A stretch of 64,000 nucleotides of DNA. Origin: Candidatus Bathyarchaeota archaeon. Its GTDB lineage: Archaea > Thermoproteota > Bathyarchaeia > Bathyarchaeales > Bathycorpusculaceae. The first letter of the stretch is position 1; each line of letters starts with the position of its first letter. The stretch spans positions 2,144,001-2,208,000 of the forward strand of contig OY970340.1 in the NCBI GenBank assembly GCA_963717465.1. Direction: 5' to 3'. The notes beneath the pieces are model-generated. The model was not told where the DNA came from, made no database searches, and saw only the letters and a program-made list of their open reading frames with translations. Of the stretch, positions 6,535 through 20,622 are shown in pieces. Position numbers and translations under genes: made by a program.

Positions 6535-7337
6535 TTCGCAAGCCTCCTAATTGAGGCTGGGGCTCCAGCAAGCGTTATTAGGGCTTCGATTTCCATAAAG
6601 TGCAAGCTTCCAGTAAAAACTAGACTGTACGGTGGCTCGCCAAAATCATGCTTGGCCAAGTTTAATATGTAATCTGCTTTAACAATTGGGCATTCGCTTC
6701 CGATTCGTGCAAAGCCGACAGCTACGGTTTTATCAGATATTACCTGCTCTTTCTTTGTTTCTTCAACTAATAGCAAAGATTTGACTGCTTCGCTTAGGCT
6801 TAAGAAGCGGTTTTCTTCTGTGTTCAAGTCAAGTAGGCAAAGTGTGTGAAGTCCTAGTTCTTTGTTTTGGGCAATAACATTATATGGTGTTTCATAAAAA
6901 TTCTCTTGAAAAGGGATAGTTACGGTTTTTCCAAACTTATAATTGTGCAGTCCGGAAGAGCTTATTACCGCCGATATTATTGATGCTCCATGGACAATGT
7001 GGGTTTTTATTCCTAGTTTTTCTGCTTCGATGCGTAACGTTACGTGTGTTGTGGCGATAAATGGATCTCCGGGAATAAGTAGAACGGTTTTTCCTTTTTG
7101 TGCTGCGTTGAGAATTTTTTTGCCGTTTTCTTCTTCCAGTTCTTTTCGGGAGACCGCGTGGATTTGTTTGTCGCATAGAACTTGAAGTTTTTCCAGTGAA
7201 AAGTTAGGCATTAAACTTGTGTAAAGCTCGATGAAGACTTCATCAGCGGCTTTGGCTTCTTGTAAGCCTTTTAGACTTATGCCTTTTTCATCGTTTAAGC
7301 CTAAGCCAACAAAGAATAGCTCCTTCAATGTTATCAC
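6531..7337 (-). CDS. dph5: Diphthine synthase
   Basis: VGLGL, ELYTS, GDPFIATTH, YKFGKTVTIP, GLHTLCLLD, LHFME. Confidence 0.95.
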   Translation of the reverse strand: MITLKELFFVGLGLNDEKGISLKGLQEAKAADEVFIELYTSLMPNFSLEKLQVLCDKQIHAVSRKELEEENGKKILNAAQKGKTVLLIPGDPFIATTHVTLRIEAEKLGIKTHIVHGASIISAVISSSGLHNYKFGKTVTIPFQENFYETPYNVIAQNKELGLHTLCLLDLNTEENRFLSLSEAVKSLLLVEETKKEQVISDKTVAVGFARIGSECPIVKADYILNLAKHDFGEPPYSLVFTGSLHFMEIEALITLAGAPASIRRLAK

Positions 7338-7531
7338 TTCTTGATTGTCAATGCATCTATTCTTAGACTGCTCGCTGTTTTAAATGGTTCTTTTTTCGAA
7401 AAGCATTTCAATTTCTCGTTGCTTAAATGGTTTATTCGAGAATTGGTCTTGCAACTTAGTTTTGGCGCTTGTAGAGTTTTGGATTTCTAGCCTAAAAATT
7501 ACTGGCAAAAAAAGTTAGACTGTGCCTGTTT

Positions 7532-7729
7532 TTAGCCCGTGCCTGTTGAATTTTCTTCGTTTGATGGATGATGGGTCATTGTCATGTGGGATTTCAGTTC
7601 AATTACGTCTCGAAACAGCCCGCCGCATTCTGGGCATCGTACCATCAGTTTTTCTAGTGTGATTAATTTTTTCTCTAGCGAAAGTATTTTTTCTAATTCA
7701 ATTTTTTGAGTTTTTTGATTTTGAGACAT
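7532..7729 (-). CDS. Small C2H2 zinc-finger protein
   Basis: CPECGGLF...LKSHMTMTH; GGGGAG upstream. Confidence 0.65.
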   Translation of the reverse strand: MSQNQKTQKIELEKILSLEKKLITLEKLMVRCPECGGLFRDVIELKSHMTMTHHPSNEENSTGTG

Positions 7730-7961: not shown

Positions 7962-8846
7962 GTGGATTCATTGCGACTTTTCAAGTTTTCAAGACCGACT
8001 CTTAGTAGAGGCAAAAAAGAGAAATTGCCGGATGCCAAGCTTCAATCTGATTCTAAAAAGCTTCAATCTGATTCTAAAAAGATTAATCAGTTCAAGAAGA
8101 AATCCAATATTAAAGCTTTAATGAAGATGTTTAACACGTCTCCGAGAGTTGAAACACGCGTTGAAGCGGTTAAGGCTTTAGCTGAAATTCGTAGCGTAAA
8201 GGCGCTTCTTGCCCTCCATGGGCTTTCTAACATGCCAATTTATCCTTATTTGCATGATGAAATCCAAGCTCAGCTATCACTGGCTATGGATTCTTACAAA
8301 CAATCACAACGCACGCCCATGATAGTAAAAGGAAAAGGTCGTTTGGGTGGTTTTGCTTTTTGGAGGAAAACAGTGTTAGGTCAAAATATAGTGCAGCCTG
8401 CGCCGCATCCTGTTGATTCTGAGTCGATACAAGCTGAGCCCGTTAAAGAGGAGAGTCGTTTAAGTCGTTTTGCGTTTTGGAAAAAAATAGGCTTAGGTCA
8501 CAAAATGTCAAAGCCTAGTGTTTCTGAATCTGTACAGGCTGAACCGGCTAGAGTGAAGGGTAGTTTGGGTCGTTTAGCTTTCTGGAAAGGATTAAGGTCG
8601 CGTCAAAAAGTGTCTCAGACTGTTGAATCCGCACCATCCCAAGGTAAGCTGGCTAGAGTGAAGGGTAGTTTGGGTCGTTTAGCTTTCTGGAAAGGATTAA
8701 GGTCGCGTCAAAAAGTGTCTCAGACTGTTGAATCCGCACCATCCCAAGGTAAGCTGGCTAGAGTGAAGGGTAGTTTGGGTCGTTTAGCTTTCTGGAAAAA
8801 GTTGCGGTCACGTAGTAAGAAGGCAAAGGCAGCAAAGAATACATAA
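7962..8846 (+). CDS. Basic hypothetical protein: HEAT-like segment plus five RLxxFAFW(K/R)-type repeats
   Basis: VETRVEAVKALAEI (HEAT-like); repeated GRLAFWK-type units. Confidence 0.7.
   Translation: MDSLRLFKFSRPTLSRGKKEKLPDAKLQSDSKKLQSDSKKINQFKKKSNIKALMKMFNTSPRVETRVEAVKALAEIRSVKALLALHGLSNMPIYPYLHDEIQAQLSLAMDSYKQSQRTPMIVKGKGRLGGFAFWRKTVLGQNIVQPAPHPVDSESIQAEPVKEESRLSRFAFWKKIGLGHKMSKPSVSESVQAEPARVKGSLGRLAFWKGLRSRQKVSQTVESAPSQGKLARVKGSLGRLAFWKGLRSRQKVSQTVESAPSQGKLARVKGSLGRLAFWKKLRSRSKKAKAAKNT
8546..8798 (+). repeat. 105-bp coding tandem repeat (about 2.4 copies, 35 aa)
   Basis: ggctagagtgaagggtagtttgggtcg starts at 8546, 8651 and 8756; the units are identical. Confidence 0.95.
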
Positions 8847-9121
8847 TTTACAGGTTGAGTGTTCAAGCCAGTACCTTTTGTATTGTTTGTGCTATTTGTT
8901 TGGGAAAACTTTTGTTTGCGAAAGCTTTTTATGCAAGTTGGCATTTTATTAGCCAAATAACAATCCGCTTGCTTGAATATTGTGAACTAAAGTAACATTT
9001 GATACTAGTTATTGCTTATTAATTGCTTTTTGATGTACCTATTTTTCTAGTATTGCGCCAACGGGAGCAAGAATTAAATGGGAGTGGCGCAGAATTAATT
9101 AAGAGAGAGGGTAAGGGAACA

Positions 9122-9514
9122 ATGTCTTATGGTACAAAAACAATAAAGGGCGCGGCAGAAAATCTAAATAGTTTTGCAAATGTACTGATGTCACAGTTAA
9201 CTGTTGTAGGTCTCAAGCCTAAGCATGAAATTACTAATTTAGGCAATTGCTTTAGGCTTGGTCGTGGGCTTGTGATGGTTGGGGTTACTGCTCGAATTTA
9301 CTATAAAGTGGTTGGAGATGATATTGTTGTTACGCCTGAGATTACGAGGTCATTTTGGTATAACTTCCTTCTTCCAATCCTGCTTTGTATATTATTCGTA
9401 GTTCCTGGAGTAATATACTATATTTGGACAAATAGGAATATGAGTAGAGCAATTGCAAGGGTATCTTTCGCTATTGAATCTTCGATGTCAATGTATAACG
9501 ATATCAACGGTTAA
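9122..9514 (+). CDS. Hypothetical membrane protein
   Basis: C-terminal hydrophobic hairpin LLPILLCILFVVPGVIYYIW; ATG 9122. Confidence 0.7.
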   Translation: MSYGTKTIKGAAENLNSFANVLMSQLTVVGLKPKHEITNLGNCFRLGRGLVMVGVTARIYYKVVGDDIVVTPEITRSFWYNFLLPILLCILFVVPGVIYYIWTNRNMSRAIARVSFAIESSMSMYNDING

Positions 9515-9548
9515 ATCTTCCTTTTAAGGGTGTATAAGTCTGGGAAAT

Positions 9549-9995
9549 TTGGAAGATGGTGTTAAAGAGGACTCTCTCTCTTTTCTTGTGCTGTCCCATC
9601 ACACCAGGGCTAATTTGAATAGAACCTGGAAACTGCGTGTTAGAGGAAAGGACTTGTACATTTGTTCCAGATGCACGGGGGTGGCAATTGGGTTTGTTGC
9701 CGCCTTGTTATTTAGACAAGCGGTATTATTATTTTCTCAAAATTCCATATTGCTTCTTGCACTTCCAGCTTTTGCAATGGCTGATTGGGTTCTGCAGACT
9801 TTAAAATTGCATGAAAGCAAAAATCCGGTGAGAATAGCGTCTGGGTTTTTTTTAGGATTATGCTGGGCAAGCATGTTTTATCTGCTCTTCTTTGACTGGA
9901 CCAATATCATGCTGTGGATTACGGCAGTTTTATATGTTGCAGTTTTTGTGGTAGTTTTACCATTTCGGATGAGACAGATGGGAGGAAAGTTTTGA
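9549..9995 (+). CDS. DUF2085-like membrane protein
   Basis: SHH...ICSRCTG, DW, NPVRIASG; about 4 TM helices. Confidence 0.7.
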   Translation: MEDGVKEDSLSFLVLSHHTRANLNRTWKLRVRGKDLYICSRCTGVAIGFVAALLFRQAVLLFSQNSILLLALPAFAMADWVLQTLKLHESKNPVRIASGFFLGLCWASMFYLLFFDWTNIMLWITAVLYVAVFVVVLPFRMRQMGGKF

Positions 9996-11742
9996 GCAGA
10001 AACGCTAAAAAGAGTTCAAACGATGAACTCCAAGGCAAACAAGGAAAAGTTGAGACTAAAATTGGGGAACCGCGAAAGGTTGCCTTGATTGTTGCATTAT
10101 GTATTATAATTGGTTATGCTGTTTTTTTGAGAGCTTGGCATCTTTTGGATACCAATTATTATTATATTATTGGTCCTAACTCGTTTCTTTACAATAGAAT
10201 GGCTGAACTCATCATATCAGGGGCTCCTCCTCTTCCCATTCCTGAAGTTGCCAGCATCACGAGTACTGGTGGTTCTGGATTAGCTTATCCTCTTGCATAT
10301 ACTGCTTACATATTAGCCTTCATTTTTCACACTTCGACCACGAGTGGACTGGTGTTAGCTGGAGAAATCTTGCCATTAGTGCTAACTGTAGTGACTTTGC
10401 TGATTATGTATTTTGTTGTTTCTAAAACTAATAATCGGCTTGTTGGTGTTTCTTCAGTTCTTGCCATGGCAATTATGCCTTTAGTTTACCTGGTTCAGGC
10501 TTCTGGATATCTTGACAGGGACGCTCTGAGTTTGTTATTAGTTATGGTTGGAGTTTTTGCGTATTACTTCTTGAGAAAGTGGCATTTCAAGCGAGAAAAT
10601 CGTGATTATGGTTGGATTATAAGCGCCATACCTATTTTGAGTATTGAATACTTACTTTTTTCGGAGTGGAATTTTGGAGCATTTATCATGATTGCTATAA
10701 TTAGTGGAAGTTTTACCTCAGAGTTTATTGGCGACTTCCTGAAAGATTTTCTAAAAGGCTATGACAAAAAAGTGTTGCCGTATCTTTTACGAAGCCCAGA
10801 ATTCGTAGTTGCTGGTTTGGAAAAGGTGCCAAATCAGCGCGAGCGGCAATTAAGCAAGTGAATTGGAAGTTATTCGTTCTGATTATCTTGATAAATGTTG
10901 TAGTTGCAATAGTACTTCCCGACCCTTTTTCTCTTGCTACAAATATTGTGGCTCAAAATTTTTCTATAACTCTTGCTTACATAATAGCTGGTTGCCTTAT
11001 CCTGTGTATTCCTTTAGTGATTGGTTTCTTTATACCATTTATAAGAAGGAGTGAGGGAGACATCTTTTGGTTAGGCTGGTTTCTTACCGCACTTATTTTA
11101 TGCTTTCTTAATTCGGAATCACTTATTTTTCTAACACCTGCCGCTGCTGTATTAATTGCCTACGTAATCTGGCCTATTGGAAAATTCAAAACATTACGTT
11201 GGAAAGGAAAAACAGCACTTACGATGTTTATGATCATAGCAATTTTCATATCCATTTCAGCCTACGATGCCCCCCTAACGCAAGGCTCTCCAACCAATAA
11301 CTGGACTCAAGCGCTTGTTTGGTGTAATCAAAATACTCCAGCAAACGCGTCTATTCTAACCTTGCCGAGTTATTCCTATTGGGTTATAGATATAGCGCAT
11401 AGAACGCCCGTCTTTAGTTATTCAGGGCTAAATTCCTCAAAAACAAGCGATTTAGCATTAGCTTACTGTACGAATGATACTAGTACGACAATTCAAATCA
11501 TGAACAAGTATGGAGCGACGTACATTATTTTCTCAACAGATGAAGTTGCAGTTCTTCCACAGTTAACAAAACTGGCGTTTGGCCAATCGTATGGTAATGG
11601 GCAAACAGTGCCTGATAACATGATTAATTCGGTTTATTATCGCTTCGTATTTGGAAATGTTAGCTCTGATGATGGTCTGACCAAGGTTTATTATGCATCG
11701 CAAAATCAACAGGAGGTAGTAGTGTTAAAACTTGAAGCCTAG
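9992..11742 (+). CDS. AglB/STT3-like GT-C transferase with degenerate motifs (frameshift near 10830)
   Basis: Multi-TM N-terminal part with GYLDRD; C-terminal W..AL.W..NTP.NA.IL...Y.YWV..IAHRTPV and KYGATYI as in AglB. Confidence 0.75.
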
Positions 11743-11915
11743 TATCAAATTGTGTAATGTTTGGAAGAAAAGAATTATTATGCTTATCAGAGTAAAGTGT
11801 ATAAGTTATTGGATAGGTAATATGTTAAAAGTAGTTCATGCATCGTGCTCGAAGCGTTGTGATTTGTTGCCGTTTGGAAGTGGGTTGGCTGAACTGGTAG
11901 ATGGAGTGAATAAAG

Positions 11916-12530
11916 GTGCCTTATCAGTTTAGTTTTGATATATCTCGTATTTCACGAAAATTGTTTCAGGAAATAGCTCTAATTGCGCAAGAGCGAAAAA
12001 CGCATATGGTAATTGGAGCTAAAACCGTCGCCCTTGCAAAACGGTTAAAACTTCTTGAAATAACAGGCTTAGATGTTACGGAAGCGGCCATTCTTCTCGA
12101 AGATCTGGTCGATATTTTTGCGAAGAATATTTCAGATAGACCATTGTTCGATAAGACGAATAAAAGAGTTCTCTTTCTATCGCATTGTTCAAGAAAATAT
12201 ATGGATAACCAGTGCAAAGCGCAATTTGATCCTAAAAAGACAACTTATGTTTGTGCTCATTGTTCCCCAGATTGCTTGATAAATCAATCGTGCGCACTGG
12301 GTGAAAAGAAAGGGTATGATGTCTATGTTGTTCCGGGAGGATCATGCATTCCTGGAATACTTAAGGCTGGAGGCTATAATGGGGTTGTTGGAGTTGCTTG
12401 TAGTCAAGAACTTAAAATGGCAAGCAATATCGTTGAAAAGATGAATGTTCATGGTCAAGGGATGCCTCTTCTTAAGAATGGATGCTGTAATACGCGGTTT
12501 AGTGTGGACAGTCTTGAAAAGATATTATAG
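11916..12530 (+). CDS. DUF116 domain protein (Cys-rich)
   Basis: SHCSRK, CAHCSPDC, VVPGGS, GVAC..EL, LLKNGC. Confidence 0.8.
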   Translation: MPYQFSFDISRISRKLFQEIALIAQERKTHMVIGAKTVALAKRLKLLEITGLDVTEAAILLEDLVDIFAKNISDRPLFDKTNKRVLFLSHCSRKYMDNQCKAQFDPKKTTYVCAHCSPDCLINQSCALGEKKGYDVYVVPGGSCIPGILKAGGYNGVVGVACSQELKMASNIVEKMNVHGQGMPLLKNGCCNTRFSVDSLEKIL

Positions 12531-12586
12531 GTGGGACATATTATGTATTCAATGGTATTGGAAGAGTGAGGGGGTAAAAGCAAGGT

Positions 12587-13291
12587 ATGGCTCTGAATAA
12601 AGCACTTGCTATTCTAGTCTGCTCTATATTTTTGTTATCAGCAATTGTGATGGTTGCTCCGGTTAAGGCTGCGCCATCGACTGAATCCAGTAGCGTTGCC
12701 AACTTTACTTTAACAGGGTGGGTTTGGGGACTTGATTATGCGCAGGATGGTATTGGAAATGCCACTCTAACTGTAACAAATGGTCAAGTAACTTATAATT
12801 CAAATACTCAGACGTGGAGCTTTAATTTTCCGAATTGCCAATTAACCTTCACCTTCGAAGATTCAACTACTCAAACTCCGGTGTCTCAAACGCTTACGAT
12901 TAACCTGGTGGGTTCTGAAACAGAATCCATTTTCCAACTGGGCGAACTTGATTATCCTACGAGCTCTAGTTTTTCAGGCGTATGGTTAAGTAGCGGTTAT
13001 ATCGCGATTATAGGTTATATTTATCTACCGCCTATCAGTGGTGGAGTTTTAAAATCTGCATCACCCTACTATTTTGCTATGAAGACACCAAATGTTAACA
13101 TTCCATTTTCTACTTCTTATAATAATGGTTTTGCTGGTGGTATAGATTCCATAATTAATAATAGCTTTATTTTAATTGATGAATTTGATAGTCAAGTATA
13201 TCAGCTGCGTGGAGTATTATCAAGCGTTCTATATGAACTGATGGTTCTTTTTTCAGGAGTACGCAACCTTATTACGCCATATATTCCTTAA
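12587..13291 (+). CDS. Secreted/surface hypothetical protein
   Basis: Signal peptide ending PVKA; S/T/N-rich beta region with N-x-S/T sequons; amphipathic C-terminal helix. Confidence 0.7.
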   Translation: MALNKALAILVCSIFLLSAIVMVAPVKAAPSTESSSVANFTLTGWVWGLDYAQDGIGNATLTVTNGQVTYNSNTQTWSFNFPNCQLTFTFEDSTTQTPVSQTLTINLVGSETESIFQLGELDYPTSSSFSGVWLSSGYIAIIGYIYLPPISGGVLKSASPYYFAMKTPNVNIPFSTSYNNGFAGGIDSIINNSFILIDEFDSQVYQLRGVLSSVLYELMVLFSGVRNLITPYIP

Positions 13292-13430
13292 CAAATAACC
13301 TAAAATCCGTAACTTAATTATAAAACTTAAGTTGAAACTTAATATTTAATTTTAGACGTGTGCATAATTTTATATCTTAGCGCTTTTGCATCGCGCGCTT
13401 TCAGCAGTTGTTTTTCTTTTTTCTAAACGT

Positions 13431-13820
13431 TTACAGTAATGCTGTTGCTATCTCGGTCACTATGTGAATTATGAACTTTACTATAGTAACGGTACTCGCA
13501 ATGATAATGGGTATCCCGGTTACAATTCCTCCCGCTAATGTACTGCTGTTTCCAGCGTAATATATTGTATTATTCGCTGCATCAGCTGTCATGGATAGTA
13601 TGGGGCACGTAGATGAAATGTAAGCAGCTATACTTGCTGGGTAGGCCATTACGTAATTCAAGGCTACTAATGAGTTCATTACAAGAACTGATATTTCAGC
13701 AGGGGCATTCGCCATTATGCTCACACCGAGGGCGCTATTCGCAGTAAGTGAATTGCTTCCGATAGTTACTAAGTTGATCGTAAAAGCTATTAAGTCATTG
13801 AGAAAAGCTATTAGTGACGT
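13431..13820 (-). CDS. Small hydrophobic helical protein, family A copy 1
   Basis: Paralog of 14394..14771; the open frame extends to ACG at 13820, at the position of the paralog's ATG. Confidence 0.75.
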   Translation of the reverse strand, partial: TSLIAFLNDLIAFTINLVTIGSNSLTANSALGVSIMANAPAEISVLVMNSLVALNYVMAYPASIAAYISSTCPILSMTADAANNTIYYAGNSSTLAGGIVTGIPIIIASTVTIVKFIIHIVTEIATALL

Positions 13821-13945
13821 TTTTTCATTCTTCCCTCCTTAGTGCGCTAACCTCTTGCCATTGACCTCGCGTTTGAATATCCAAAAACAAAGCCTATTTG
13901 TTGTGCGCGCGCAAGTCATGAGGATAAAAAATATGGCTCATGATA

Positions 13946-14284
13946 TCAGGAACCTGTTAGAATATACGTTAAGATATTATTCATAACTGCGACGGTATTT
14001 TGTAATACGCCGGCTAAATTACTAGCCAGAGTTTGCCCAGGCGAAGTAAGGGTATTGCCATTAACAAATTGTGCAAGTACAGCATTTGCTAGCGTGAGCA
14101 AATAGTCCAAAAGAATTGTCACTTGCTTAATTAAATATGATGATTCATTAACCAGAATTTGCCCAGACGGAGTAAGGGTATTGCCATTAACAAATTGTGC
14201 AAGTACAGCATTTGCTAGCGTGAGCAAATAACTCGAAAGAATTGCAAATTGCTGATTTAAAGATGTTAAAGCTGCAGTACTCAT
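13946..14284 (-). CDS. Small hydrophobic two-repeat protein, family B copy 1
   Basis: YLLTLANAVLAQFVNGNTLT occurs twice, 42 aa apart (60 bp identical: 14045-14104 and 14171-14230). Confidence 0.8.
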   Translation of the reverse strand: MSTAALTSLNQQFAILSSYLLTLANAVLAQFVNGNTLTPSGQILVNESSYLIKQVTILLDYLLTLANAVLAQFVNGNTLTSPGQTLASNLAGVLQNTVAVMNNILTYILTGS

Positions 14285-14393
14285 TTTATTTCACTTCTTG
14301 TTTCTTCTCCGACTTAATAGCAAGTGTTACGAAAAAGGGGAATATTTGATATTTTCATCGGTTAGCGCATGCGCTATCCTTTTTTCTAAATGC

Positions 14394-14771
14394 TTAAATA
14401 ACCGTTGCTAGCCACTTCATTAAAGCGCTTAATACAGTAACGCAATTCCCCACGATACCGCCTATCCCGGTTACAATTCCTCCCGCTAATGTACTGCTGT
14501 TTCCAGCGTAAGCTACTGTATTATTCGCTGCATCAGTTGCAAAGCTGGGAACTGGGCACGTAGATGAAATGTAAGCAGCTATACTTGCTGGGTAGGCCAT
14601 TACGTAATTCAAGGCTACTAATGAGTTCATTACAAGAACTGATATTTCAGCAGGGGCATTCGCCATTATGCTCACACCGAGGGCGCTATTCGCAGTAAGT
14701 GAATTGCTTAGGATAGAGAATAAGCTGGCCAGAAAATTTACTAAGCTATTTGCTAGATCTATTAGAGACAT
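14394..14771 (-). CDS. Small hydrophobic helical protein, family A copy 2
   Basis: ATG 14771 after AGGAGG; 125 aa with 4 charged residues. Confidence 0.8.
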   Translation of the reverse strand: MSLIDLANSLVNFLASLFSILSNSLTANSALGVSIMANAPAEISVLVMNSLVALNYVMAYPASIAAYISSTCPVPSFATDAANNTVAYAGNSSTLAGGIVTGIGGIVGNCVTVLSALMKWLATVI

Positions 14772-14993
14772 TTTTTCATTCTTCCCTCCTTTCATTTTTT
14801 TAACTCTAACTTGATTAGTTAGAGTTGACACGAATATACTTACATCAAGCTTTAAGTTATAAGCAGTAGGTAGTAACAAACGTAACTAAAGAATTTCCAA
14901 AAAAAATTCACTTTTCAAACTCAAAAAGTGGGATTTATGGCGTTCAACTCGAAAGCAAATTATTTAGCGGTTGAAATGTCACGGAAGGACAAT

Positions 14994-15776
14994 TTAGAAT
15001 TCAGTTTCTTTGCTGATTGCTTTCATAGCCTCTGACTGACGCCCTAAAGCTTTTTGGTTCCTCATTGCCTTCATCATATTGAGCTTTAGTTTAGCTTTCT
15101 GCGGGTTAATCTCACCTCTAGCTATACCCGCATGCATAGCATAAGTAGCGGTTGAACCGAACTCAGTTTCTTTATTACTAAGATCAGCTGCCTTAGCCTC
15201 GCTAACTGTTCCCTTCCCATTATCAAACTTCATCAGAAAAGCTCTCGGCTGCCCATCTGGACCCACAACATCAGAATAGACATACATAAAACTTGTAGTA
15301 AGCGCTGCTTTCATCCATTCTTGATCATTGTTTAACCAATCAGCCATTTTCTGATACCACTCCAATGTTCCAAATTTAAGCCGCATTTGAGTGGATTCCA
15401 TTTGAACAGGCTCTGCTGATGAAGGCTCAATTATGGCAGATTCCGCAAGATCGGGTTCTTTTGGAGTAGGTTCTGCTTGAACAGACTCGCCTTGAAAAGG
15501 CACCGTTAATGTTGGTTCTGTTTTAACAGCTGTTGGTGCAGATTCTGTTTTAACAGGTTCATCCTTTTTAAGCTCCTTTTTTTCTTCAAGGCTCCTTTTA
15601 ACATCACTTAAGGGCTTTTTGAAAATTGCAGTATTATTAACGCGAGTTCCAGATACTGTTGAAAAAGTAGCTATTAATTCCCAACCATCCAATCCAAGTT
15701 GTCTAAACTCTCTTTCATTTTCTTCCTGATACGAGTACGGTTTCAGTTTAAAAAATTTATATTGCCAACCTTTCAA
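14994..15776 (-). CDS. DUF4177-like + P/E/T/S linker + SCP2-like lipid-binding domain fusion
   Basis: LGLDGWELI at the N-terminus; C-terminal KFGTLEW...WLNND...ATY...IARGEINP. Confidence 0.65.
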   Translation of the reverse strand: MKGWQYKFFKLKPYSYQEENEREFRQLGLDGWELIATFSTVSGTRVNNTAIFKKPLSDVKRSLEEKKELKKDEPVKTESAPTAVKTEPTLTVPFQGESVQAEPTPKEPDLAESAIIEPSSAEPVQMESTQMRLKFGTLEWYQKMADWLNNDQEWMKAALTTSFMYVYSDVVGPDGQPRAFLMKFDNGKGTVSEAKAADLSNKETEFGSTATYAMHAGIARGEINPQKAKLKLNMMKAMRNQKALGRQSEAMKAISKETEF

Positions 15777-20310: not shown

Positions 20311-20622
20311 TTACACCATTAACATCGCTGTCAGCACTTGGTTAATGAAGTACACTGTATTTTGCACCATAAGACTCAAACTACTAAGAAGACTTGCACC
20401 TGCAGGAGTAAGAGCACCCGTGCTAGGTACAACCCAAATCGACAGCAAACTATCCACAAGCGATAAAACAGACAACAACATCGTCGAACTCAAGTAGACT
20501 AACTGACTGCCAGCAGGAGTAAGATAACCCGTGCCAGGTACAACCCAGAACGAAAGGATACCATTCATGAGAACCATGATAGAAGATATCATATTTACCA
20601 TCTGAACAATTATAACCGACAA
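20311..20622 (-). CDS. Small hydrophobic two-repeat protein, family B copy 2
   Basis: WVVPxTGxLTPAG twice, 37 aa apart; TTG 20622 after AGGAGGGAA; C-terminus VQNTV..INQVLT resembles LQNTV..MNNILT of 13946..14284. Confidence 0.8.
   Translation of the reverse strand: MSVIIVQMVNMISSIMVLMNGILSFWVVPGTGYLTPAGSQLVYLSSTMLLSVLSLVDSLLSIWVVPSTGALTPAGASLLSSLSLMVQNTVYFINQVLTAMLMV

Follow-up and report, generated by a model that had tools for sequence, protein, structure and literature searches.

Charge-poor proteins predicted to form helical hairpins are linked to a short STT3-like transferase lineage in a bathyarchaeal genome and in metagenomes

Our analysis of a 64,000-nucleotide stretch of a Candidatus Bathyarchaeota genome (C1:2144001-2208000, referred to herein as the window, in a single-contig assembly of 3.05 Mb that is 88% complete) revealed a family of small, charge-poor proteins, predicted to fold as helical hairpins, whose genes recur beside a short STT3-type transferase. 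Together, the hairpin proteins, this dedicated STT3 lineage, and a secreted partner make up a real, conserved, and apparently undescribed module. The preliminary description of the stretch had proposed undescribed hydrophobic helical mini-proteins served by a dedicated STT3-type transferase, and all of the open reading frames (ORFs) that it listed were recovered at the same positions. For two of the mini-proteins, m2 and m4, the proposal was borne out: their neighborhood, on which that description had rested its case beforehand, is conserved (15 of 34 loci beside the short enzyme versus 0 of 133 beside ordinary ones), and they match no known family.

Four mini-proteins are encoded on the minus strand of the window, specifically m1 (13431..13820; 129 residues, 5 charged), m2 (13946..14284; 112 residues, 3 charged), m3 (14394..14771; 125 residues, 4 charged), and m4 (20311..20622; 103 residues, 1 charged). 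They are as poor in charge as had been described (1-5 charged residues in 103-129), the ribosome-binding site AGGAGGGAA does precede m1, m3, and m4, and N-x-S/T sequons do occur in several of them (m1 and m3 have two apiece, m2 has one, and m4 has none). The AGGAGGGAA 9-mer occurs 14 times in the whole 3.05-Mb genome. The four comprise two unrelated families (hhalign probability 0.5%): m2 and m4 are members of one unnamed family, and m1 and m3 are orphans. Both m2 and m4 have acquired three helices through internal duplication (a 117-nucleotide repeat, 88% identical, in m2 and a 58-nucleotide repeat in m4, which starts with TTG after AGGAGGGAA), and neither has a sequon in its loop; P0103 is a close single-hairpin relative of m4. 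Charge-poor ORFs are not rare as such, given that 15 passed a genome-wide filter (60-140 residues, at most 5% charged, and a motif resembling a ribosome-binding site). What exceeds chance is the hairpin family and its linkage, not charge-poorness itself.

A word-based homologue search with m4 matched proteins of this genome only, and an Atlas search gave no usable match for m4 or P0040. A profile was built from m2, m4, and the homologous domain of a second module copy (locus L001, described below) and applied iteratively to all fetched loci in six-frame translation. It converged with 39 proteins, of which 36 come from outside this genome, and a further one fell just short of the threshold. In a HMMER search of 1.84 billion representatives, the family comprised 324 clusters at 50% identity (E ≤ 0.001), and, from the 150 matches listed, 34 were read and scanned against Pfam. 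Ten matches were looked up, and one carried an organism name, Dehalococcoidia bacterium MBE0480895.1. Two metagenome loci have gyrA as a neighbor. On the basis of that one name and of gene content, most holders of the family are likely Dehalococcoidia.

Each hairpin unit consists of a helix, an aromatic-Val pair, a variable loop of 6-42 residues, the motif LTxxG, and a further helix. An AlphaFold2 model of 63 residues (helices at 2-22 and 33-62; predicted local distance difference test score, pLDDT, 79.7) predicts that the helical pair folds as a hairpin. Two units occur in each of P0065, P0066, and P0169, and some members have leaders that resemble signal peptides by eye. In P0102, P0119, and P0206 (3 of the 150 listed matches), the hairpin lies at the C terminus of a 296-418-residue protein with immunoglobulin (Ig), Fn3-type, or beta-helix domains; the hairpin loop of P0119, which may be a read-through fusion, holds one sequon and one Cys. 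Lys and Arg make up 2.4% of the hairpins, which are net acidic or neutral, and a Kyte-Doolittle value of 1.6 is reached by only 14 and 12 of 41 helices (mean best 1.4-1.5), with a mean hydrophobic moment of 0.35-0.38, i.e., moderately amphipathic. Such moderate hydrophobicity and amphipathicity, together with few Lys or Arg, are more in keeping with packing between proteins than with ordinary membrane spans.

None of 41 hairpin members matched Pfam better than E 0.009, with no pilin, GvpA, or bacteriocin family found, and none matched PHROGs better than E 0.04. A PDB sequence search gave the hairpin members no family match and no capsid match, and NCBIfam gave m2, m3, and m4 no pilin-family match. 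Fold searches with the 63-residue model were non-specific (best Z 6.3, to generic helical pairs; best BFVD E 3), such that the lack of a capsid protein, pilin, or GvpA among their matches excludes nothing. A literature search, which covered few subscription papers, found no description of the hairpin family or of a Dehalococcoidia oligosaccharyltransferase. Several candidate matches were discarded. The sole PDB match below E 1, to the designed coiled coil 8qad (E 6e-5), was rejected as compositional. We also discounted weak m2 matches (E 3e-4 to 0.01) seen in 5 of 200 class genomes: stops interrupt three of the five, and L005 was the only one of these loci to score with the three-sequence profile (E 0.89). 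A further lead, that the abundant Dehalococcoides proteins DET0754/CbdbA727 belong to the family, was unconfirmed and dropped.

The transferase of the window, which had been called degenerate and AglB-like, was confirmed by homology as STT3-type. Its two halves lie in different frames of the plus strand, N-terminal at 9914..10861 (the true start may be further in) and C-terminal at 10858..11742, with a frameshift near 10840-10860 separating them. An assembly error may account for the split because 57 conserved genes, checked with ORFs of a genome from the same genus, include 8 that are frameshifted in this assembly and 1 with a stop; at such a rate, splits of genes here need cautious reading. 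Asn replaces the first catalytic Asp (GPNSF versus SPDSY), the stretch that would carry the SVSE/TIXE-type Glu is absent, and PSYSY stands in place of WWDYG; only the DxD-type motif, YLDRD, is retained. With three of four catalytic motifs lost, the enzyme is probably no longer a normal N-oligosaccharyltransferase. The second module copy, 7-13 kb before the window at C1:2131263-2136696 (L001:7263-12696), holds an unsplit STT3-like gene (662 residues, 48% identical to that of the window), a DUF116 paralogue (85% identical to its window counterpart), and a secreted protein of 342 residues whose C-terminal part, a three-helix hairpin domain with a long Ser/Thr/Asn-rich loop, is homologous to m2 and m4. 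A transposase-like fragment and an FdhD-like gene complete it.

As a query against genome contigs and class-wide, the window STT3 by itself gave only distant, ordinary-AglB-like matches. The unsplit L001 gene gave 16 full-length relatives (29-73% identity), and an alignment of the short-STT3 relatives, scanned on metagenome contigs, identified 78 loci. The resulting profile matched human STT3A (E 4e-27 over ~480 profile columns) and AglB (E 2e-20) in the PDB, and its consensus aligned with the EFDP, DNE, SVSE, and WWD motifs of human STT3A; window-type STT3 scored 37 bits with TIGR04154, for which the cut-off is 450. In a quick tree, the short enzymes (550-660 residues) formed one clade against eight ordinary AglBs, and the window and L001 enzymes grouped with P0005 and P0006; in its labels, P0005 (WWE) counts as WWD-less, and L131 is labeled WWD-less though its enzyme has WWDYG. 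The short enzymes share a homologous membrane domain and soluble core with STT3/AglB/PglB oligosaccharyltransferases, but they differ in constituting a separate short clade encoded beside likely substrates and in repeatedly losing the WWD motif while the acidic residues stay. The motif is absent from about half of the relatives, and the metagenomic ones, including those without WWD, keep three acidic catalytic positions. An ordinary AglB-like gene is also present in this genome, at C1:158961. Two loci (L103:7936-11746 and L121) hold tandem pairs of short STT3 genes in which both motifs read WWD-less, and two others (L132 and L133) hold more distant STT3-like genes of ~470 residues with WWDYG, beside very large secreted proteins and without mini-proteins.

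The linkage was assessed in 34 loci with a short-STT3 profile score of 200 bits or more, many of them short contigs, and in 133 ordinary AglB loci (1.79 Mb). The hairpin family occurs in 15 of the former and none of the latter, and counting either of two other small hydrophobic families raises this to 17 of 34 versus 0 of 133. Where at least 2 kb of upstream DNA was available, a mini-protein was found in 14 of 17 loci (L103-L131). One to five hairpin paralogues occur per locus. Most hairpin genes (30 of 37) are located upstream of the short STT3 and on the other strand, unlike the window, where the layout is convergent. The secreted partner (12587..13291, plus strand) has relatives in 6 of the 34 loci. 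It has a signal-peptide-like N terminus (by eye), a domain of ~150 residues that is beta-rich in look, and a C-terminal amphipathic helix pair ending in PYIP, and in its relatives the 12587-type domain forms the C-terminal module, preceded by cohesin, Fn3-like, or DUF2341/LamG domains. Surface-type proteins neighbor the short-STT3/hairpin loci. With hhalign, the hairpin family could not be linked to m1/m3, to a second mini-protein family, or to the C-terminal helices of the partner.

The other two charge-poor helical families also lie upstream of short STT3 genes, one at L103:4811-5023, L103:7537-7749, L111:6585-6812, and L111:9297-9518, and the other at L107:208-510, L108:8027-8314, and L131:2810-3103; homology between the first of these and the hairpin family was not detectable. 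Interleaved with hairpin genes is a recurring neighbor with a Cys-rich N terminus (CxxC...C...C), a Pro-rich linker, one hydrophobic stretch, and DUF4352 (L103:5272-6201; L106:5663-6499 and 6851-7633; L111:7063-7974; L127:2704-3534; L128:2138-2959; L130:4927-5754).

The WWD motif binds the +2 Ser/Thr of the N-x-S/T sequon, and the hairpin loops vary with it. Across 41 hairpin units, 39 sequons lie in loops (735 residues) and 11 outside them (2494 residues), and within-loop shuffles gave an expectation of 16.3 +/- 3.3, with none of 2000 reaching 39 (the rows being related). Beside WWD-intact enzymes, 18 of 18 units (6 loci) have loop sequons, versus 2 of 22 (9 loci, the window included) beside WWD-less enzymes, with L134 omitted for its truncated enzyme. 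When only long loops are considered, the counts are 18 of 18 versus 1 of 6. The contrast recurs within this genome, where the hairpin domain of the WWD-intact L001 copy has six sequons and the loops of m2 and m4, beside the WWD-less copy, have none. That loop sequons track the WWD motif ties the enzyme to its substrate. Loop Cys residues were also seen only beside WWD-intact enzymes (10 versus 0; L105, L112, L114, L115, L116, and L119), often paired with a second Cys just past the LT motif, an arrangement that suggests an extracellular disulfide.

We propose, with confidence that is evenly divided, that the hairpins are subunits of a cell-surface polymer that are exported, glycosylated on their loops by the neighboring STT3, and mixed as paralogues, with adhesin-type domains on minor subunits. 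Some hairpins would be exported by way of their signal-peptide-like leaders and others with helix 1 serving as an uncleaved signal. The hydrophobic helices would then pack the hairpins into a surface filament, tube, or sheet, in which several paralogues would co-assemble, and the neighboring short STT3 would likely modify the exposed loop. Minor subunits, in which a C-terminal hairpin or a 12587-type domain is joined to Ig, Fn3, or beta-helix domains, would be incorporated as well. The WWD-less enzymes with three acidic positions may modify sequon-free hairpins by another rule.

Small, hydrophobic, helical subunits are also found in PilO/PglL pilin systems and in conjugative or Ced/Ted pilins, and the PilO/PglL systems include a dedicated lipid-linked sugar transferase. 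The hairpins resemble these in size, hydrophobicity, helicity, the number of paralogues, and a neighboring lipid-linked sugar transferase, but they have no pilin family match, their transferase is STT3-type, and no ATPase, prepilin peptidase, or type IV secretion system gene recurs with them among the shared families of loci L103-L134. GvpA, the small hydrophobic shell protein of gas vesicles, has helices that flank a short beta element. The hairpins are likewise small and hydrophobic, but they differ in having no Pfam match, far fewer charges, a variable sequon-bearing loop, and no gvp cluster among the shared families.

Several observations weigh against a glycosylated surface polymer. Of the families common to loci L103-L134, none is an assembly ATPase, peptidase, or channel, so there is no visible extrusion machine, and two hydrophobic helices would also fit a plain membrane anchor. 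In three loci (L117, L120, and L122), the fetched DNA includes a short STT3 but no mini-protein. The six WWD-intact hairpin loci all fall in one clade, and WWD losses number about three (quick tree, loci with hairpin data); because independent events are so few, the locus-level Fisher p of 2e-4 overstates the association. Sequons also persist where they would not be expected: 12587-type partners beside WWD-less enzymes retain 7-16 of them, 4 of 6 members of the two other mini-protein families beside WWD-less enzymes have one, and m1 and m3, next to the degenerate window enzyme, carry two apiece. Conversely, a mini-protein of another family beside the WWD-intact enzyme of L131 has none. The L001 enzyme itself, with WWDYG kept, has Thr in place of the first Asp of the DxD-type motif. 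Finally, only one named protein (Dehalococcoidia) bears on the putative donor and direction of the transfer discussed below.

One alternative would have the hairpin as a two-helix membrane anchor, making the mini-proteins small integral glycoproteins of a glycan coat under or in place of a surface layer, with the same anchor tethering adhesin domains; the link to STT3 would stand, without a polymer. The helices, of ~20-30 residues with mean best Kyte-Doolittle values of 1.4-1.5, are compatible with this, as are the C-terminal position of the hairpin in secreted fusions and the lack of a common assembly machine among the loci, and a three-span topology of the 342-residue L001 paralogue would place its loop, with five sequons, outside. 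Yet almost no Lys or Arg is available to fix a topology, and up to five diverged paralogues per locus also count against an anchor. Further, were both helices to span the membrane, a leader or an N-terminal extracellular domain would be hard to reconcile with an outward loop: the loop would then be cytoplasmic, although that of P0119 (perhaps a read-through fusion) has a sequon and a Cys. We consider a plain anchor unlikely, while still the main rival. Capsid proteins of the SMV1, SSV1 VP1, and APBV1 type combine a two-helix fold with N-glycosylation, and the module could instead be a domesticated or decayed morphogenesis block of a budding virus, its hairpins kin to SSV1-VP1-like or IME1 capsids that form virus-like particles or decoys. 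Spindle-virus capsids are shells of highly hydrophobic subunits, a "protein membrane" (PMC10589707), and the IME1 elements of Dehalococcoides encode short hydrophobic proteins resembling SSV1 VP1 (HOG00/HOG01) together with a pI-like ATPase (bioRxiv 10.64898/2026.09.15.751708); short, very hydrophobic subunits are what the capsids of such spindle- and rod-shaped archaeal viruses and the IME1 proteins have in common with the hairpins. However, no sequence or fold match was found (the fold searches being non-specific), the hairpin loci are chromosomal, among housekeeping genes such as gyrA, and they come with their own transferase and adhesin fusions. The 41 members have no PHROG match better than E 0.04, and a second PHROG scan, of 22 further proteins, returned for m2 two weak matches (E 2e-4 to 3e-4), both to unnamed families, in which no stretch passed; it gave no capsid match. 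Neither short STT3 nor partner nor m4 relatives were found in viral contigs or phage records, and no Zot/pI-type ATPase (PF05707) was found in this 88%-complete genome, in which integrases were not searched by family. A viral derivation is therefore improbable in our judgment.

Glycocins, circular bacteriocins, and like peptides are usually cationic. If the mini-proteins were exported membrane-active peptides of this kind, matured by the transferase, their small size, hydrophobicity, paralogy, fast divergence, and patchy distribution would be accounted for; but the hairpins are net acidic or neutral with 2.4% Lys and Arg, no ABC (ATP-binding cassette) exporter or immunity family recurs with them, no bacteriocin family matches, and the same hairpin ends large adhesin-like proteins, all of which leaves this very improbable. 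We give still less credence to the preliminary description's idea of an apolipoprotein-like lipid particle loaded by an SCP2 fusion and DUF116. The SCP2-like fold is supported, the hairpin helices are moderately amphipathic, and DUF116 stands beside both module copies in this genome, but SCP2, DUF116, DUF2085, and the Trp/Lys protein were found in 0 of 34 short-STT3 loci, so this reading loses its support; the SCP2-like domain has 12 matches genome-wide, and DUF116 is a core gene of the genus. A separate question concerns the window copy only, which may be a transferred module in decay, no longer working in this archaeon. The split STT3 with three of four catalytic motifs gone suggests such decay, the ACG start of m1 and the lack of the module in sampled relatives are in line with it, and yet the split may be an assembly error, m2, m3, m4, and the 12587 gene are open, three mini-genes have strong ribosome-binding sites, and the lack of loop sequons in m2 and m4 is in step with WWD loss. 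On balance, we regard a relic as possible but somewhat less probable than a working copy.

The module was not found in relatives of this archaeon: the hairpin profile had no match in 200 sampled genomes of the family, and the partner profile had none in 400 sampled phylum genomes or 100 genus genomes. This absence points to a gain by transfer, and the archaeal copy was likely acquired in that way. Surface machinery is reported to have been exchanged before: Dehalococcoidia and Anaerolineae received the archaellum by transfer from archaea (PMC12488501). Dehalococcoides and Dehalogenimonas are reported to lack peptidoglycan (PMC10284905).

What our results add is an unnamed family of at least 324 clusters, linked to an STT3 lineage of bacteria and archaea, in organisms whose envelopes are poorly understood. 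The novelty lies in the module as a whole; the enzyme alone stays within the known STT3 kind, and the novelty falls if the hairpins are plain membrane anchors. The joint loss of WWD and sequons offers natural enzyme-substrate pairs on the question of whether an oligosaccharyltransferase can dispense with a sequon, a question relevant to glyco-engineering and to the evolution of N-glycosylation. If the hairpins polymerize, they would be a cellular counterpart of the "protein membrane" of spindle viruses. The most far-reaching possibility, which we advance only tentatively and think unlikely, is that of an unrecognized, cell-encoded surface shell or tube built of capsid-like hydrophobic hairpins, widespread in Dehalococcoidia and transferable to archaea, with its own STT3 lineage and a WWD-less branch that would modify sequon-free proteins.

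As for the orphans, m1 and m3 are paralogues (69% amino-acid identity), and a word-based search with m3 matched proteins of this genome only, with no homologues found outside it; the place of m3 in the module is based on position alone. The two genes are identical over a central DNA block of ~155 bases but diverge at the ends, a pattern suggestive of gene conversion or recent duplication. At the start position, m1 has ACG and m3 has ATG, and a five-codon ORF begins 2 nucleotides past the ribosome-binding site common to both, in another frame. Elsewhere in the genome, an isolated ORF at C1:856443-856685 (plus strand; 80 residues) is charge-poor and helical-looking, with a strong motif resembling a ribosome-binding site, unrelated neighbors, and no match to the hairpin profile.

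The remaining genes of the region had been proposed as members of the system, and single-protein searches do not place them there: DUF116 (11916..12530), DUF2085 (9549-9995), the membrane protein at 9023-9514, and the Trp/Lys repeat protein at 7962-8846, all on the plus strand, and the SCP2 fusion (14994..15776, minus strand) are found in 0 of 34 short-STT3 loci. The identities assigned to DUF2085 (Pfam E 5e-13) and DUF116 (Pfam E 1e-25) are correct. All 31 genus genomes have DUF116, and a TFIIB-like gene adjoins it in each of the 12 loci fetched; the window paralogue, despite adjoining the module as its counterpart in L001 does, is probably a passenger. The SCP2-like fusion has a weak DUF4177-like N terminus, an acidic linker, and a domain whose SCP2-like nature is upheld through its paralogues, while its place in the conserved module is not. 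Specifically, the six best PDB matches of the paralogue profile are SCP2-type proteins (best E 0.005), and Pfam SCP2 matches three of nine paralogues but not the window protein itself. The 12 genome-wide matches (L210-L221), two of them identical copies (C1:2309615 and 2613327), constitute a divergent, expanded family. The L001 locus adjoins glycosyltransferase genes that continue into the start of the window. The protein at 7962-8846 is basic, a weak HEAT-like region in it being followed by tandem repeats rich in Trp/Lys, and it has a paralogue at C1:51681-52766 with its own internal repeat.

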